In this document: positions 4,652 through 19,877 of the stretch, piece by piece
Position numbering within the stretch: the first letter of the stretch is position 1
Layout: the number at the start of each line of letters is the position of its first letter
The notes under the pieces: model-generated
Database searches by the model: none
What the model was told of the DNA's origin: nothing
Seen by the model: only the letters and a program-made list of their open reading frames with translations
Program-made: the position numbers and the translations under genes
IMG/VR virus record: IMGVR_UViG_3300020048_000090
Source: an uncultured virus (IMG/VR IMGVR_UViG_3300020048_000090)
Taxonomy: Duplodnaviria; Heunggongvirae; Uroviricota; Caudoviricetes
Reading direction: 5' to 3' (one strand)
DNA: 20,000 nucleotides

Positions 4652-5001
4652 GACCTAACTAGAGAAGCTTCTACATCTTTAAAGTTCTTTGTTAGCTCAG
4701 CAGGAGACATAGCATAAGCTTTTAGTTCATACCATATCTCATTGTATTCTCCTCTAATACCTATCTCTACAGATTCATGTACAGAATCTTGTATATTGTA
4801 CTGGAAGGGAACAACAACTAGTTGTGCTCCTGATCCATTAGTTTCACAATCTCTAGCTGGTATTTCAGATGTTCTATATGCTTGCCATTCACATGTATTA
4901 CTTTTATCTCTAAGAGTATTAATACCAAACTTGAAATGTTTCTTAGTTAAGAAATCATGTAATGCTGGCATTCTAGTGGTATGAGGTTTAGGTGGCATCA
5001 T
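4630..5001 (-). CDS. hypothetical protein
   Basis: Track ORF 4630..5070. The start is more likely at 5001, overlapping the upstream stop (ATGA). Confidence 0.65.
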   Translation of the reverse strand: MMPPKPHTTRMPALHDFLTKKHFKFGINTLRDKSNTCEWQAYRTSEIPARDCETNGSGAQLVVVPFQYNIQDSVHESVEIGIRGEYNEIWYELKAYAMSPAELTKNFKDVEASLVRSWNALKE

Positions 5002-5255
5002 GGTTCGTCTTGGAGCATCTCTGATATTTCTTCTAAGGTCATATGAGCTAAGTCTTCCCATTTGACCCATATACAGTCATGGAAAGCTTTGATAGATGCT
5101 TCTATACGCCTATGTTTTTCGTTAATCTCTTCTAAATAGATTTCTCTTAATTGTTCTCTCATGTTTGTATGAGCTTTAATAAGATCTTCTACAGTTAGAA
5201 TTTTACTTAACCCTAGATAGGTAGAGTAATCTTCTAGTAACTCTTTATCTGTCAT
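4998..5255 (-). CDS. hypothetical protein
   Basis: 85 aa with AAGGAG RBS. Confidence 0.7.
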   Translation of the reverse strand: MTDKELLEDYSTYLGLSKILTVEDLIKAHTNMREQLREIYLEEINEKHRRIEASIKAFHDCIWVKWEDLAHMTLEEISEMLQDEP

Positions 5256-5352
5256 GCTAATCTCCTTTGGTTGATTGGTTCCGTTACATCATTTATTGTC
5301 TCAAATGTACGGTTTCCATAAACAGACATATATAATAGTTTAAAATACTTTA

Positions 5353-5616
5353 TTAAGTGTTAAACCTACCATCAAATAGTAATTTTTTATTATATAATTT
5401 AATATCATCAGATATATTTAAAAAATAAACATCTTCAATTACTGTTCCATCTTCTAAATAAATCTTTATTTTATATATTAAATTATTTATATTTTCTAAT
5501 ATGCTTATAAATACTTTATCTTTTACATATATTTTAGAGGTGTTTTTAAAATCTTCACAATCTGCTATTGTAAAGTCTTTTTCTATATAGTATCGTATAC
5601 TTTTCAAGTTACTCAT
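5353..5616 (-). CDS. very AT-rich hypothetical protein
   Basis: 87 aa, I/K/N/Y-rich, visibly more AT-rich than its neighbours; weak RBS. Confidence 0.5.
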   Translation of the reverse strand: MSNLKSIRYYIEKDFTIADCEDFKNTSKIYVKDKVFISILENINNLIYKIKIYLEDGTVIEDVYFLNISDDIKLYNKKLLFDGRFNT

Positions 5617-5653
5617 TACTATACTCTTTAAAAGATATATTACATTGATTGGA

Positions 5654-5726
5654 TACCATCTCTAAGCACATTTACTGCTATGCTACATATTGACTGGTTC
5701 TGCCCCAGTGTCTCTTAGAGAGGGTA
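5654..5726 (-). ncRNA. circularly permuted tRNA-elbow-like RNA (T-arm before D-arm)
   Basis: TACCCTCTCTAAG-AGAC-[ACTGG GGCAGAA CCAGT]-CAATATG-TA-[GCAT AGCAGTAA ATGT]-G-CTTAGAGATGGTA; the 13-bp closing helix has one mismatch. Confidence 0.55.
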
Positions 5727-5731
5727 ATTGG

Positions 5732-5866
5732 ATAGGATGGCTGGTACTGATCTCCAGCTTACGATTAACTACTGCACTTGCACGGGATAGCAGCAACCCG
5801 ATCCTTGTGCCATGACAAGTCGCACGCATGGCGGCGTTAGCGTATCAGTCTACGCATTCATCCTAT
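5732..5866 (-). ncRNA. structured ~135-nt RNA with tRNA-like outline and loop-loop pairing
   Basis: ATAGGATG/CATCCTAT closing stem; GCGT-AGACTGAT-ACGC and GCTGG-AGATCAGTA-CCAGC hairpins with complementary loops (ACTGAT/ATCAGT); GC-rich internal hairpins. Confidence 0.75.
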
Positions 5867-5868
5867 AA

Positions 5869-5929
5869 TGAGACTGGTTGGATTTGAACCAACGACATAC
5901 TACATTCTACCAAACTGAACTACAGTCTC
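5869..5929 (-). ncRNA. tRNA-like RNA lacking the anticodon arm
   Basis: GAGACTG-TA-GTTC AGTTTGGTA GAAT-G-TAGT-ATGTC-GTTGG TTCAAAT CCAAC-CAGTCTC-A. Acceptor, D and T arms are intact; only 4 nt replace the 17-nt anticodon arm. Confidence 0.8.
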
Positions 5930-5934
5930 ATTGC

Positions 5935-6066
5935 TGGTGGGTCTGAGAGGCATTGATCCTCTAATCAACGAAGTATATTTACCCTAAATTGCTTTTCTGC
6001 TGGGCTATTCCCAACAATAGTACGATTTAGGTATTCCGTTGCTTTAACTTATTAAGTTACAGACCC
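5935..6066 (-). ncRNA. 132-nt tRNA-like RNA with encoded CCA and a greatly expanded anticodon-arm domain
   Basis: GGGTCTG...CAGACCC-A-CCA acceptor; AGAGG ATCAATG CCTCT T-arm; ~75-nt paired insert (CAACGG/TCGTTG, CCTAAAT/ATTTAGG, TGTTGGG/CCCAGCA). Confidence 0.75.
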
Positions 6067-6091
6067 TTTACTTACAATTAAATATGCTTTA

Positions 6092-6163
6092 TAGACTTGC
6101 CCAGAATCGAACTGGGAATAAAAATTTAGAAGATTTCTGTGATATCCGTTTCACTACAAGCCT
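6092..6163 (-). tRNA. trnR: tRNA-Arg (anticodon UCU), CCA not encoded
   Basis: AGGCTTG-TA-GTGA AACGGATA TCAC-A-GAAAT CT TCT AA ATTTT-TATT-CCCAG TTCGATT CTGGG-CAAGTCT-A. AGA codons are frequent in the window's genes. Confidence 0.9.
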
Positions 6164-6190
6164 ATAAAGCATACTTAATTTAATACTATC

Positions 6191-6331
6191 TTATTCAGGT
6201 ACAAATGATTTATACAAATCAACTACCCATCCATCTGTACCAGCAAACTTAACTGCTGTAAGTCTATTCTTATAGACTCTCCAGCAACCATCTGCTCGAT
6301 ATGCTTTCCATTTATATAGTTTAGTGGTCAT
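6191..6331 (-). CDS. small hypothetical protein (46 aa, MTTKLYKWKAYRADG...)
   Basis: Hand-translated; AAGGA RBS; overlaps the end of the upstream gene. Confidence 0.5.
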   Translation of the reverse strand: MTTKLYKWKAYRADGCWRVYKNRLTAVKFAGTDGWVVDLYKSFVPE

Positions 6332-6590
6332 GTAAATTTCCTTTATAAAATGATTCTAATGCTTTATACAAGTAAAAAGCTTCATCATAATCTAGATTAA
6401 ACTTTTTAGCTTTACTTGTATTGTAAGAAGGTATTTTAACAGAAAGACTGTTACCTGTGTTCTTAAGTTTTAATGCAGGATTACCTATGAATGGTGGAGT
6501 ATAGCCTGCATCATATGATACAACTATTTTATCTTTACCTACATTTAGGTCTAGACAGTAGCCATCATCATCTTGTATTAGTTTATTCAT
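6321..6590 (-). CDS. hypothetical protein
   Basis: Track ORF 6321..6623; the GGAG RBS supports a start at 6590 (MNKLIQDD). Confidence 0.65.
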   Translation of the reverse strand: MNKLIQDDDGYCLDLNVGKDKIVVSYDAGYTPPFIGNPALKLKNTGNSLSVKIPSYNTSKAKKFNLDYDEAFYLYKALESFYKGNLHDH

Positions 6591-6963
6591 TACTATCTCC
6601 TTTAGAGAATGTTTTAGTAACAATTAATTCTTCTGTTTCTATGCAGTTAAGGTGGTATGCAGTATTGATCCAATCATTACATTCATTACCACTTAAAATG
6701 TATGTCCAACCTACCCATGTACCATCTGGTAGCTTATCCCCTAAAGATTCAATAACATCTTTGTAATTCTTGTATACAGGTATATTAGTACTTCTGGAAT
6801 AGTCTAATACATCTTCTTTAGCATCTAGATATTCTTTTGAGTTAATTAACTCATCTGGATACATACTATCTATATCTTCTAAAGGATACTTATGTTGTTC
6901 TAGGTTATTCCACAACCTATACTTTGATACTATTAACCATTTTACTTTCTGTGATGGTGTCAT
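6583..6963 (-). CDS. phage hypothetical protein
   Basis: Track ORF to 6996; the GGAG RBS supports a start at 6963. Contains an LPDGTWVGWTY motif. Confidence 0.7.
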   Translation of the reverse strand: MTPSQKVKWLIVSKYRLWNNLEQHKYPLEDIDSMYPDELINSKEYLDAKEDVLDYSRSTNIPVYKNYKDVIESLGDKLPDGTWVGWTYILSGNECNDWINTAYHLNCIETEELIVTKTFSKGDSNE

Positions 6964-7033
6964 TATGTTCTCCAAAGTTGATAAAAACATCTCCATGATA
7001 TTTATTGTTGTATCTTTTATTCTTCTTTTTTCA

Positions 7034-7055
7034 ATCGCGAGACAGCCGGAGGCTG
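7034..7055 (-). promoter_or_regulatory. candidate N4 vRNAP-type hairpin promoter (template on + strand)
   Basis: atcgcgaga-CAGCC-GGA-GGCTG: 5-bp stem with a C-GGA-G triloop. Shares ATCGnnAGAnAGCC-GNA-GGCT with 1602-1623. Confidence 0.5.
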
Positions 7056-7112
7056 CTTAGTCTATAATGAAAACACGATCTTTTTCAAAGATAGAGTTTA
7101 TATTTAGGAACT

Positions 7113-7156
7113 AAAAAAAGAACAAAAGATACCCAATAAAGGATATCTTCTGTTCT
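7113..7156 (-). terminator. intrinsic terminator after RNAP II subunit 2
   Basis: Inverted repeat agaacaaaagatacc...ggatatcttctgttct followed on the minus strand by a T7 run. Confidence 0.7.
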
Positions 7157-7160
7157 AGTT

Positions 7161-8123
7161 TTAGCTCAGCATATACTCAGATTCTAGAATATCTTGATAC
7201 AGTTCAGGATGTGTATAGGATAGTTCTATACGTTGTCCTGTTAGTTGTTCAACAATGTCTTCCAATAAATTACTAGCAGCTATTTCAGCTACTATATCCC
7301 TATAGAAGATACGAATCTGATTCATATACTTTGGATGAGTCCAGAAGCTATCATGGATATGAGCTAATTGAAATCCTGCTTTATTAGCTCTTCTAACCAT
7401 TTCTCTAGATACATAAGCATCAACAGAATGTACTACGTTAGCTAGTAGTGAAGTACTATTCTCATCAGTACCAATATCTTTCCAACGATAGGTAAATGAT
7501 GTACCAAATACCTCAATACGTTTCATCTTATGGATCATGGTTGGTAGTATAACTACATGACCATCTGGCAATGTGAAACTATGTGCTAGTGCATCACTAT
7601 CCCAGCATTGCTTCAATAGACCACCTATCTCACCTAATATAGGTACAGTCTTCTCTACTGCATACAAGAATGCTTTAAGCTCAGGAGTACCTTCACCAAA
7701 TGTCTCTTTAGGAGCTTTAATACTCCCATACATCATAGCTACTAAAGCAGGTTTAACATCATCTCTAGAGACATTAACTGTCTTGATTTGATCCATAATA
7801 TTAGTATAGAGATCTTCTCTCTTACCAGTATTAATGAGATTACAAGTCTTAGCAGATATTCCACACTTACCTAGAGCAGCCATGATTTGAATACCTGATG
7901 CTGATGCATCTAAAGCCATGATATAACCAGATTTCCTAGGATTCCTATACATATCTAATGCTTTGATATATAGGTATTTAGTCTTACCTTCAGGTACTAG
8001 ACTCTCTAGCTGGTGATCATTGTCTTTCACCCATTGGATTCTCTCATCCCAAGTAAGCTTATCATTGCCTGCATGATTAGCGAGATCAATGGCTAGCCAA
8101 GTATAACTGTTGAATTGTTGCAT
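7161..8123 (-). CDS. heterodimeric T7-like RNA polymerase II, catalytic subunit (N4 gp16/RNAP2-like)
   Basis: Motif A LDASASGIQI, motif B RDDVKPALVAMMYGS (Rx3Kx7YG), NVVHSVDA, motif C IHDSF; N-terminal DKLTWDERIQWV. Confidence 0.93.
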   Translation of the reverse strand: MQQFNSYTWLAIDLANHAGNDKLTWDERIQWVKDNDHQLESLVPEGKTKYLYIKALDMYRNPRKSGYIMALDASASGIQIMAALGKCGISAKTCNLINTGKREDLYTNIMDQIKTVNVSRDDVKPALVAMMYGSIKAPKETFGEGTPELKAFLYAVEKTVPILGEIGGLLKQCWDSDALAHSFTLPDGHVVILPTMIHKMKRIEVFGTSFTYRWKDIGTDENSTSLLANVVHSVDAYVSREMVRRANKAGFQLAHIHDSFWTHPKYMNQIRIFYRDIVAEIAASNLLEDIVEQLTGQRIELSYTHPELYQDILESEYMLS

Positions 8124-12941: not shown

Positions 12942-13166
12942 GATAATCTCCTTAGGAGTTGTAGCACTGAGGCCTCAGTACCATTAAACAGAACGTATAA
13001 CGATCTTTTTATATAGCTTGATAGGGGGGGATACCAAGATATAGGAATTAACATGTGTAAGTACTTGGTTGATACCAAATTATGAATTTTCCACCAAGAT
13101 TTCAACTTTTAGTTGACTAAATAAGCTAACATAGTCTATATACTATCTATTTACATAGGAGCTGAA

Positions 13167-17691: not shown

Positions 17692-19736
17692 ATGGCTCTT
17701 ACAAATGTAAAAGATTGGCAAGTGGAAGTTTCTGGAAGTACTTTAGGTGATAACTTACAAGAGATAGTTACTGGTATTGCTGGTGAGAATGGTGCTGCTA
17801 ATATTGGTTATCTTCCTGCTGGTACAGGTGTTAGTACAGATCGTAGTGTGCAGGATAAGCTAAGGGAGAGTGTTAGTGTTTTTGATTTTGGTGCGGTAAT
17901 TGATGGGACTGATTCATCTCCTGCTATTCAAGCATATATAGACTTATGTGATATTGCTGGATATTCTTATGCGTATTTTCCATCTCATAATATTGATTAT
18001 CTAATAAATACACCTATTAAATTTGAAGTAGCGGATTTTAGAATTTTCGGGGATGCAGGTGTTCGTCTTGTACATCCTTTTCTAGATGGAACTTCCAGGA
18101 CTATGAGAAAAGGTGCATTAGTCGCAGGTACAACAGCGACTTCAATTTTTGAATTAGGTGGGTATAAAACTAGACCCGGTTATGACACAGCACCTTATCC
18201 TCCTAATCCAACGAGAAATTACACAGGTTCCTATACAGTAGAAAATATTGCTATGCGTGGAACAACTAATTATTTTTCTAATGGAATTGAATTAGCCTGT
18301 TTGCAGAACGGTCCTGATCGCCCATTTTTTATAAAAAACTGTTCAGGTTATAACCTAAAAAATGGTATATATATTCCCCCTGCTCCTACGGTGGGTGTTA
18401 CTACTATGGGGTCTGTAATATCAATACAGAATTGTGGTTATAGTTTTTGTGATAGAGGTATTTTTGTTGAGGGGCCTGTATATGGTGCAAGCATACTTGA
18501 TAATAATTTAGAGGCAAATGCTTCAGGATGTATTTGGGGTAATTTGAATGGTGCGGTACGTATCCAAGATAATTTACTTCAGTCCTCAAAAAATCCAATT
18601 AACTTAACTCCAGCAGAATCTTTGTCTTTAAAAGCGTCAGGTAATTATTTTGAGTATCATCCCACTTCTGATTACTTATACCAAGTTACAGGCTCTGCTA
18701 CCTATCTCCCATACGATATTGATATTTCAGGGGATATTGATGGCGGTGGTGATCTGCCAGCATACCATGTTAGTTTAGTAAATGGCGGTAGATGGAAAAT
18801 AAATATAGATAGTCCTACTCTTATTAGTACAAATGAAGCAACTAACACCTTTGTAATTAGAAAGGGGAGTAATTGTTTTGCTGGTGGTAATATTAATATT
18901 GGTCAACTGGTATCCCCTATTGTTGCTTATGTTGATAATGCATTCTTACGAACAGATCATGATAGTGGGTGGATTTATGATTACCCAAGTAATCCTGCTG
19001 TTACCTACCAAGGGGATACTCCAATTGGAAATGTAGATATTGTTGATTTAGCAGATGGTATTACNNNNNNNNNNTATCAATGCAGGAACTTCTATAGCAG
19101 GAAAATTAGTATGTAACACCTTTATGATACGTGCAAAAATGGATACACTTGTTGAATCTTGTGTATTACAAGCAAGGTTATCAGGTGGAACTTTTGTAGC
19201 TGGTCCTGGTGATATTATGCGATATGTACAACAAGATATATCTACCAGTGATTGGTGTATGGTGGCTATTATATGGAAACCTATAAATAATGTAGCTACA
19301 TTTGAGTTTTTTGTTGATGAATCTTTTAGGGGTATTTTTGAAGTAGCAGGAGTTACTACAAAAGTATATGGTGCGTATGAAGGTGATGGTACTGATCCTA
19401 TTATGTCAATATCACCTGTACCGTTAAAACCAAAGAGTTTATCTGCATCTAATGCCAATGGTAGCTACCAAAAATTATCTGATGGTACATTAATTTGTTG
19501 GAATAGTTTTGGTAGTTCAACCTCAGTAGGTTCTTCTGGTACTGTACAAGGGCTGAATATATATACGAATACTTCTGCTTGGACATTTCCACATGCTTTT
19601 ATAAGTACCCCTACTATTGTTTGTTCATCTAGTCAAAATGGGGCAAATCTTATGGTTGCAGCACAAGCACAATCAGTAGGTATTACCGGGGCCAATATAG
19701 TTTCAACGAGTTTAACTGCTCCCTCGGATTTTTCTA
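17692..19736 (+). CDS. tailspike / tail fibre protein, probably one gene interrupted by an N gap at 19065-19074
   Basis: N-terminal GAANIGY...RSVQDKLRESVSVFDFGAVIDGTDSSPAIQA head-binding/beta-helix entry motif. The post-gap frame has a C-terminal NGSYQKLSDGTLICW...WTFPHAF fibre-tip domain. The true end is hidden by a second N gap. Confidence 0.75.
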
Positions 19737-19877
19737 NNNNNNNNNNATCCATCAGTACCTATTTTTTCTCTAAGTTATAAGTAATTCAATGAATAATCCT
19801 TGAAATGTTACTAGTGCAAACACTAACCTTTGAATTAACTCTGGTGACTATACGTTGCCAGAGGGTAGGAGTATAGA

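Follow-up and report, generated by a model that had tools for sequence, protein, structure and literature searches.

Stable RNAs with a tRNA-like outline have been known from phages since the 1970s and, to our knowledge, none of them has an assigned function. Outside this group, tmRNA combines a tRNA-like acceptor/T domain and a CCA with a long helix that replaces the anticodon arm, and in the engineered "tRNA scaffold" RNAs and in mascRNA a tRNA body lets the tRNA enzymes excise and stabilise a cargo located at the position of the anticodon arm. Phage T5 has three annotated tRNA-like stable RNAs in its tRNA region, RNA1 (144 nt), RNA2 (125 nt) and RNA3 (73 nt), all with functions unknown. In phage T4, RNAC (species 1 RNA, 139 nt) and RNAD (species 2, 119 nt) are encoded by genes located directly after tRNA-Arg, a position also held by the 132-nt gene described here, and a review gives their roles as unknown (PMC3014915). 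In the accessible parts of the literature consulted, no assigned function was found either for such RNAs or for phage tRNA-like decoys. The 132-nt element analysed below is, in our view, probably a real gene for a small RNA that is framed as a tRNA and does not decode, a reading that is put forward with some reserve.

The window, i.e. the whole stretch of 20,000 nt that was analysed, belongs by its gene content to a divergent N4-like phage from fresh water. The large terminase has 68% identity to its counterparts in N4-like phages of Enterobacter, Erwinia and Pectobacterium, the N4-type RNA polymerase II (RNAP2) is split into two adjacent ORFs, and the stretch was found in lake or freshwater metagenome runs (17 studies account for the 20 runs listed, and one run is possibly the window's own source). 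All genes from about position 13,100 down to position 1 are on the minus strand; short runs of N, which appear as XXXX in the translated ORFs, occur at about 19050-19780 in a tail-fibre-like region. An ORF-free stretch (5617-6320) contains, in the order of transcription, a tRNA-Arg(UCU), the 132-nt RNA and three further units of 61, 141 and 73 nt (Table 1), and family searches with the flanking ORFs gave no informative family. The tRNA-Arg lies inside a 24-nt inverted repeat (arms at 6076-6099 and 6157-6180, 92% complementary) that extends its acceptor stem. In the 61-nt unit, 13 positions of the tRNA model are replaced by 1 nt, meaning that the anticodon arm is missing or reduced to a few nt; this unit has a canonical D arm, T arm and acceptor stem, lacks an encoded CCA, and shares with the 132-nt RNA five of the seven letters of its acceptor 5' strand (GAGACUG). 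The 141-nt unit has a T-arm-like hairpin (GCUGG-AGAUCAGUA-CCAGC), and the 252-nt stretch that contains it (5617-5868) folds no better than its shuffles (z -0.58).

Table 1. Features of the RNA cluster and parts of the 132-nt RNA, in the order of transcription.
Feature	Window coordinates	Strand	RNA positions	Basis or composition
tRNA-Arg(UCU), upstream neighbour	6091..6164	minus		ARAGORN; Rfam tRNA 57.8 bits
132-nt tRNA-framed RNA gene	5935..6066	minus (6066 -> 5935)		fold and matches of the R1 model to tRNAs
Acceptor stem, 5' strand GGGUCUG	6060..6066	minus	1-7	7/7 pairs with 5939-5945, probability 0.98-1.00
D-position mini hairpin UAACUU-AAU-AAGUUA	6045..6059	minus	8-22	pair probabilities 0.67-0.99
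Arm in place of the anticodon arm (rod), 76 nt	5966..6041	minus	26-101	MFE fold, pair probabilities
50-nt core of the arm	5988..6037	minus	30-79	recurs on other contigs with unlike flanks
T arm AGAGG-AUCAAUG-CCUCU	5946..5962	minus	105-121	aligns to T arms of real tRNAs (R1 alignments)
Acceptor 3' strand CAGACCC, discriminator A, encoded CCA	5935..5945	minus	122-128 (3' strand)	direct reading
61-nt tRNA-like unit, 5 nt past the CCA of the 132-nt RNA	5869..5929	minus		Rfam tRNA 49.3 bits
141-nt unit, GC-richer	5727-5867	minus		closed by AUAGGAUG/CAUCCUAU
73-nt hairpin unit	5654-5726	minus		closed by a 13-nt inverted repeat

The initial annotation had proposed at this place a CCA-terminated mimic of tRNA with a structured domain replacing the anticodon arm. 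Its coordinates proved correct, with the minus strand as the one that encodes the RNA (positions in the RNA are obtained as p = 6067 - window coordinate), and the predicted fold supports such a mimic. The perfect acceptor and T stems were recovered as described (7/7 Watson-Crick and 5/5 pairs, respectively), as were the non-canonical T-loop AUCAAUG, which has A where U54 is normal, the pair G3-C70 in place of the alanine G3-U70, and the long interrupted helix with its cap, which spans 76 nt. From its base upward, this arm is composed of P1 (7 bp), a 3 x 10-nt internal loop, P2a (7+2 bp), an A-rich 4 x 4 loop and an apical 8-bp hairpin, UUGUUGGG-AAUAG-CCCAGCAG, while the D position is occupied by a hairpin of 6 bp having a 3-nt loop without G18G19. 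Direct reading of the 3' letters of the neighbours also bore out that an ACCA end is encoded only once in the cluster, the tRNA-Arg being followed by A-UAA and the 61-nt unit by A-UUA.

The MFE of the 132-nt RNA, which adopts a four-way layout, is -42.8 kcal/mol as compared to a mean of -24.7 kcal/mol for dinucleotide-preserving shuffles (n=200), none of which was as stable (0/200; z -4.66); the fold exceeds what is expected by chance. The arm region taken alone (71 nt, window 5975-6045) gave a z of -3.66. In the ensemble, the main helices consist of pairs with probabilities of at least 0.80, apart from U13-A17, which tops the D-like hairpin and reaches 0.67, and the fold was unchanged when the entire 704-nt ORF-free stretch (6320..5617) was folded. 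A pairing of the apical loop with an upstream motif, which had also been proposed, stood in part only: the loop AAUAG (58-62) is indeed complementary to CUAUU (47-51) but the two do not pair in the ensemble (probability 0.00), and the corresponding pseudoknot was dropped, with -2.6 kcal/mol as against -10.4 kcal/mol for the apical hairpin and no linker left.

Homology shows that the frame descends from an ordinary phage tRNA gene: a covariance model of the RNA matches tRNAs minus the arm, and the acceptor stem of the RNA is almost identical to the one in the tRNA(CAU) of the nearest relative. The model, R1, was made from the single 132-nt sequence and its fold and was run against 66 sources (660,004 bases), namely the window, the T4 locus and 64 IMG/VR loci that surround RNAP2 homologues. 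Seven matches were obtained at E <= 10, which correspond to the RNA itself on both strands, to four ordinary tRNAs (L025, 45.5 and 31.7 bits; L002, 44.6 bits; L055, 20.8 bits) and to one weak match at E 4.1; those of 45.5 and 44.6 bits have an E of about 1e-7. The two tRNA alignments displayed run from end to end of R1, with 56 model positions of the arm reduced to 1 nt, and over all alignments to real tRNAs 56-74 arm positions are replaced by 1-19 nt. In the end-to-end matches with the arm deleted, tRNA homology was found for the acceptor stem, the discriminator, the CCA and the T arm; moreover, the strands at the base of the arm (ACGGA/UUCGU) and the letters of the variable region align with the anticodon stem and the variable loop of related tRNAs.

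The nearest relative, L002, has an RNAP2 that is 56% identical, the best of the 64 loci in the RNAP2 alignment search, and carries at the syntenic spot a tRNA(CAU), a tRNA-Arg(UCU) and a tRNA-Leu(UAA). Its tRNA(CAU) starts with GGGUCUA and ends with UAGACCCACCA, and the acceptors of this tRNA and of the 132-nt RNA differ by a single base pair: six of the seven letters of the 5' strand are the same and the 3' end ...AGACCCACCA is identical. All three tRNAs of L002 (7292-7542) carry an encoded CCA, and together they may serve codons that end in A, namely AGA, UUA and, provided that the CAU tRNA belongs to the lysidine-modified Ile type, AUA; of the three tRNAs, the window retains the Arg decoder alone in recognisable form. 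With RNAP2 alone as query no closer relative was found in IMG/VR, closer RNAP2 relatives (95, 89, 85 and 77%) existing only on contigs of 1.3-2.2 kb, and a search with the AAA ATPase gave five loci at 45-50%. Of the 64 loci, 60 were scanned with ARAGORN, which called a tRNA in seven and tRNA-Arg(UCU) in four of these seven.

The rod is an addition that occurs in none of the relatives reached. The R1 search did not find it in any of the 64 related loci, nor in five whole records of relatives, in which tRNA matches were likewise obtained with the arm deleted. Its uniqueness, together with the intact tRNAs at the equivalent spot of L002, the loss of canonical residues from the D-loop and the T-loop, and an adjoining 61-nt unit that also lacks the anticodon arm, would fit a recently wrecked tRNA gene, i.e. 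a functionless pseudogene that arose by insertion into the anticodon arm and decay of the D arm in a recombination-prone cassette region. This is the main rival to a gene for a non-decoding RNA and we hold it to be rather unlikely: all helices are intact (acceptor 7/7, T stem 5/5, reshaped D hairpin 6/6), the rod is itself very stable (z -3.66), and phage genomes are generally known to keep ca. 130 nt of junk seldom for long.

Membership in known RNA classes was examined in several ways. No match to the Rfam tRNA model (RF00005) was found over 5935-6066 at the gathering score or at E <= 10, and ARAGORN in its default, relaxed (-ps80) and mitochondrial (-mt) modes called the tRNA-Arg alone and missed the 132-nt RNA. 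One option left by the initial annotation was a tRNA with an unusual intron, which would be spliced to a working tRNA of ca. 76 nt, for instance one reading AUA or AUG. The alignment of the arm base with the anticodon stem of related tRNAs would agree with this, as would the nearly equal acceptor stem of the L002 tRNA(CAU), but no intron-bearing tRNA was returned by ARAGORN with -i, -io or -i -ps90, the tRNA-Arg being the only call at lowered thresholds, and Rfam gave no intron. A group I intron would need more than the 76 nt of the arm, as had been noted, and a cmscan of 5000-7000 at E <= 10 for such introns or for self-cleaving ribozymes yielded only tRNA and chance-level matches. In addition, the internal loop is 3 x 10 nt and forms no bulge-helix-bulge, a readable 7-nt anticodon loop with U33 and purine 37 is not found at the arm base unless cut sites are chosen arbitrarily, and the D-loop (3 nt, no GG) and T-loop (A54) are unlike those of a working bacterial tRNA. 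Splicing to a decoding tRNA was thus considered very improbable. Taking the D-position hairpin for the anticodon arm was also rejected: read with a 7-nt loop, it would present the anticodon AAU and leave the body with no D arm, an implausible arrangement for bacteria.

That the RNA is not a tmRNA was confirmed by ARAGORN, with empty results in the default mode and with -m -ps90, and by the lack of any Rfam tmRNA match. A chargeable mimic of another kind, i.e. a mini tmRNA-like or aminoacylated RNA acting on the ribosome or in aminoacyl transfer, would make use of the encoded ACCA, the perfect acceptor stem and A73. The tmRNA searches, the lowered threshold included, speak against it, as do the pair G3-C70 instead of G3-U70 and a structure devoid of anticodon, pseudoknots and tag-like reading frame, and such a role is hardly credible. 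As far as the identity elements allow a prediction, charging of the 132-nt RNA would be unlikely because it has G3-C70, offers the Met and Ile enzymes no anticodon and lacks a canonical elbow. Altogether, the ARAGORN intron and tmRNA checks and the covariance-model search, all of which had been suggested with the initial annotation, detected no intron-tRNA, no tmRNA and no second copy of the whole RNA.

A resemblance to YrlA, the bacterial Y RNA (RF02553), was discarded at 21 bits (E 0.24) as compared to a gathering score of 69; the weak match is explained by the fact that two tandem tRNA-like units would alone produce it. Indeed, it runs from the T arm of the 132-nt RNA into the D arm of the unit that follows, and a Y-RNA-like composite of the two was dropped as well.

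Contigs covering 4800-7200 were compared in RNA libraries of two studies (X9 and X16 from one, X20 from the other) and in a DNA run (X18). The 132-nt gene shows no difference in X9 (5868-5986 and 5994-6072), X16 (5697-5986 and 5994-6072) and X18 (5921-6071), whereas the contigs of flanking ORFs differ at 17 of 1248 positions in X9 and at 19 of 1192 in X16, i.e. by 1.4-1.6%. About two differences would be expected in 132 nt and none was observed (P about 0.12-0.17), which is a weak sign of constraint on the gene; over 5697-6072, a single difference was found as compared to 5-6 expected. This identity in three runs next to variable flanks is a further point against a wrecked tRNA gene.

The neighbouring units behave as cassettes that are either present or absent. 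In contigs of two RNA-library runs, a joint 6072->6187 skips a whole module of 114 nt (6073-6186) composed of the tRNA-Arg and its inverted repeat, and a joint 5726->5868 with four other letters skips the 141-nt unit, a DNA contig being in agreement. Further downstream, an RNA-library contig (window 5255-5645) has 17 other letters in place of the ORF at 5353-5616 (87 aa, no family). A DNA contig that covers the 61-nt unit continues past 5932 into unlike sequence and some strains therefore hold something else at this place, the 132-nt gene being dispensable for them; the presence of other sequence at the site is also what a wrecked tRNA gene would allow. No joint was found inside 5935-6066 in the four runs, a count that leaves room for splicing since contigs can drop rare forms. 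Coverage in X20 is confined to 5610-6095 and that of X9 and X16 is nil over 6096-6176, missing cover to which no evidential weight is given. In X9 and X16, contigs over the cluster were 1.5-2.9x as deep as those of the flanking ORFs, contig depth being a measure that cannot rank genes. The RNA libraries may contain DNA, the flanking ORFs occur at similar depth, and contigs are not suited to read transcription or RNA ends.

The 50-nt core of the rod was also found outside the 132-nt gene, in short contigs of ca. 102-106 nt that have the same unlike flanks in X9, X16 and X20, and hence in two studies. The two flanks, as far as can be judged from the 25-31 letters printed, would be able to pair with each other (about 8/9), and the 3' flank appears to resemble the CAGACC-AC-A end of the 132-nt RNA, which suggests a smaller relative sharing the rod core. 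Recurrence of the core in three RNA runs speaks against the rod being random filler, and the presence of the core elsewhere counts against a wrecked tRNA gene. The core of the 73-nt unit (5662-5718) likewise recurs with unlike flanks in three RNA runs.

In JGI metagenomes, a 21-nt pattern from the rod core gave one match, in a GC-rich contig (L066) of 1046 nt that has no Rfam match and in which the shared region (448-482) falls within an open frame of 172 codons. This contig has the apical hairpin exactly (21 nt) and, if small gaps are allowed, also the AUCG...GCAAU helix beneath it. Exact patterns gave no match in IMG/VR, whether taken from the T arm/acceptor (27 nt), from the core (pieces of 24, 20 and 25 nt) or from the neighbouring 73-nt hairpin unit (22 nt), and two 20-nt core patterns gave none in GTDB genomes. 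In blastn searches against phage GenBank records, nothing was found at E <= 1e-5 with 5700-6200, and the 132 nt alone gave chance-level matches only (E = 5). A complementarity scan of the 132-nt RNA against both strands of the window found nothing beyond matches of 10-11 nt.

In the reading favoured here, of a real gene for a non-decoding RNA, the anticodon arm of an ancestral tRNA would have become a rod of 76 nt with three helices, the D arm being reduced to a mini hairpin, with conservation of the parts that are read by processing enzymes, namely the 7-bp acceptor, A73, the encoded CCA and the T stem. By analogy with bacterial and T4 tRNA clusters, the cluster would be transcribed as one minus-strand precursor. 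Established tRNA biology suggests that RNase P would cut before G6066 and again before G5929, where the following unit starts after a spacer of 5 nt, and that 3' exonucleases would then trim this spacer to the CCA, so that a stable RNA of ca. 132 nt may accumulate. Excision by RNase P is probable on these grounds, although the T-loop without U54 and the D-loop without G18G19 form a non-canonical elbow, at the place touched by RNase P and tRNA enzymes, and this counts against our reading. The 132-nt RNA should not decode codons because it has no anticodon loop and because the usual elbow contacts are missing. Most likely, the tRNA frame would be a handle for processing and stability, and the rod, above all its 50-nt core, would be the working part, either binding a protein or acting as a decoy.

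A bolder proposal takes the frame as a natural chassis and the 50-nt core as a portable effector, lake phages swapping cassettes that deliver a hairpin decoy or a toxin sink; the anticodon-less CCA end would then soak up toxins that attack tRNA acceptor ends (toxSAS/CapRel and MenT/AbiEii types). The core would then sit in at least one other short RNA, that of the contigs of ca. 102-106 nt, which have a higher depth figure in lake RNA libraries and whose ends can pair as well. We consider this proposal improbable. As described in the reports, toxSAS FaRel2 and CapRel are defence toxins acting on tRNA acceptor ends (10.1101/2024.07.05.602228, PMC9712102), and so is MenT (PMC10435456, PMC7450476). 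Since toxins of this type are described, a CCA-ended decoy directed against them is conceivable, and if such RNAs truly were decoys against tRNA-directed defences they would represent a new class of RNA anti-defence factors. The 132-nt gene sits where RNA units come and go as cassettes in natural populations, and the recurrence of the rod core provides a concrete handle, since aligning its contexts could reveal the selected part and point to a binding partner.

When compared to ordinary phage tRNAs, and especially to the L002 tRNA(CAU), the 132-nt RNA is alike in its acceptor stem, discriminator, CCA, variable-region letters and T-arm outline, and differs in having no anticodon loop, a 3-nt D-loop, A54 and 56 extra nucleotides. 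Unlike tmRNA, it has neither pseudoknots nor a tag frame. The tRNA scaffolds and mascRNA are engineered or eukaryotic, whereas the 132-nt RNA is natural and phage-encoded and its frame would play a comparable part as a handle. T4 rnaC has paired ends and a T arm, with a long extra arm instead of the decoding arm, like the 132-nt RNA, but the situation is opposite for two features, T4 rnaC having a canonical T-loop and no encoded CCA. T5 RNA1 and RNA2 share with it the paired ends, the T arm and an enlarged middle; RNA1, unlike the 132-nt RNA, keeps a canonical D arm and T-loop, and the T5 RNAs have weaker fold z values (-1.8 and -1.2). At the sequence level no homology to the T4 or T5 members was detected, R1 scores being within or below the tRNA range: T4 rnaC scored 10.4 bits (E 0.44) as compared to 8-24 bits for eight T4 tRNAs, and T5 RNA1 scored 11.3 bits as compared to 5-30 bits for the real tRNAs in the comparison. 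T4 belongs to the Straboviridae whereas the phage studied here is N4-like. Several features by which phage tRNA-like stable RNAs are recognised were found at this locus, namely a position inside the tRNA cluster and on the tRNA strand, paired ends, a T arm and no usable anticodon arm; a further one, accumulation as a discrete RNA processed by RNase P, is predicted for it. The 132-nt RNA would thus most likely be the same kind of object as the T4 and T5 RNAs, a kind that forms no sequence family and that would hereby extend to an N4-type podophage from lakes, with a clear tRNA ancestry.
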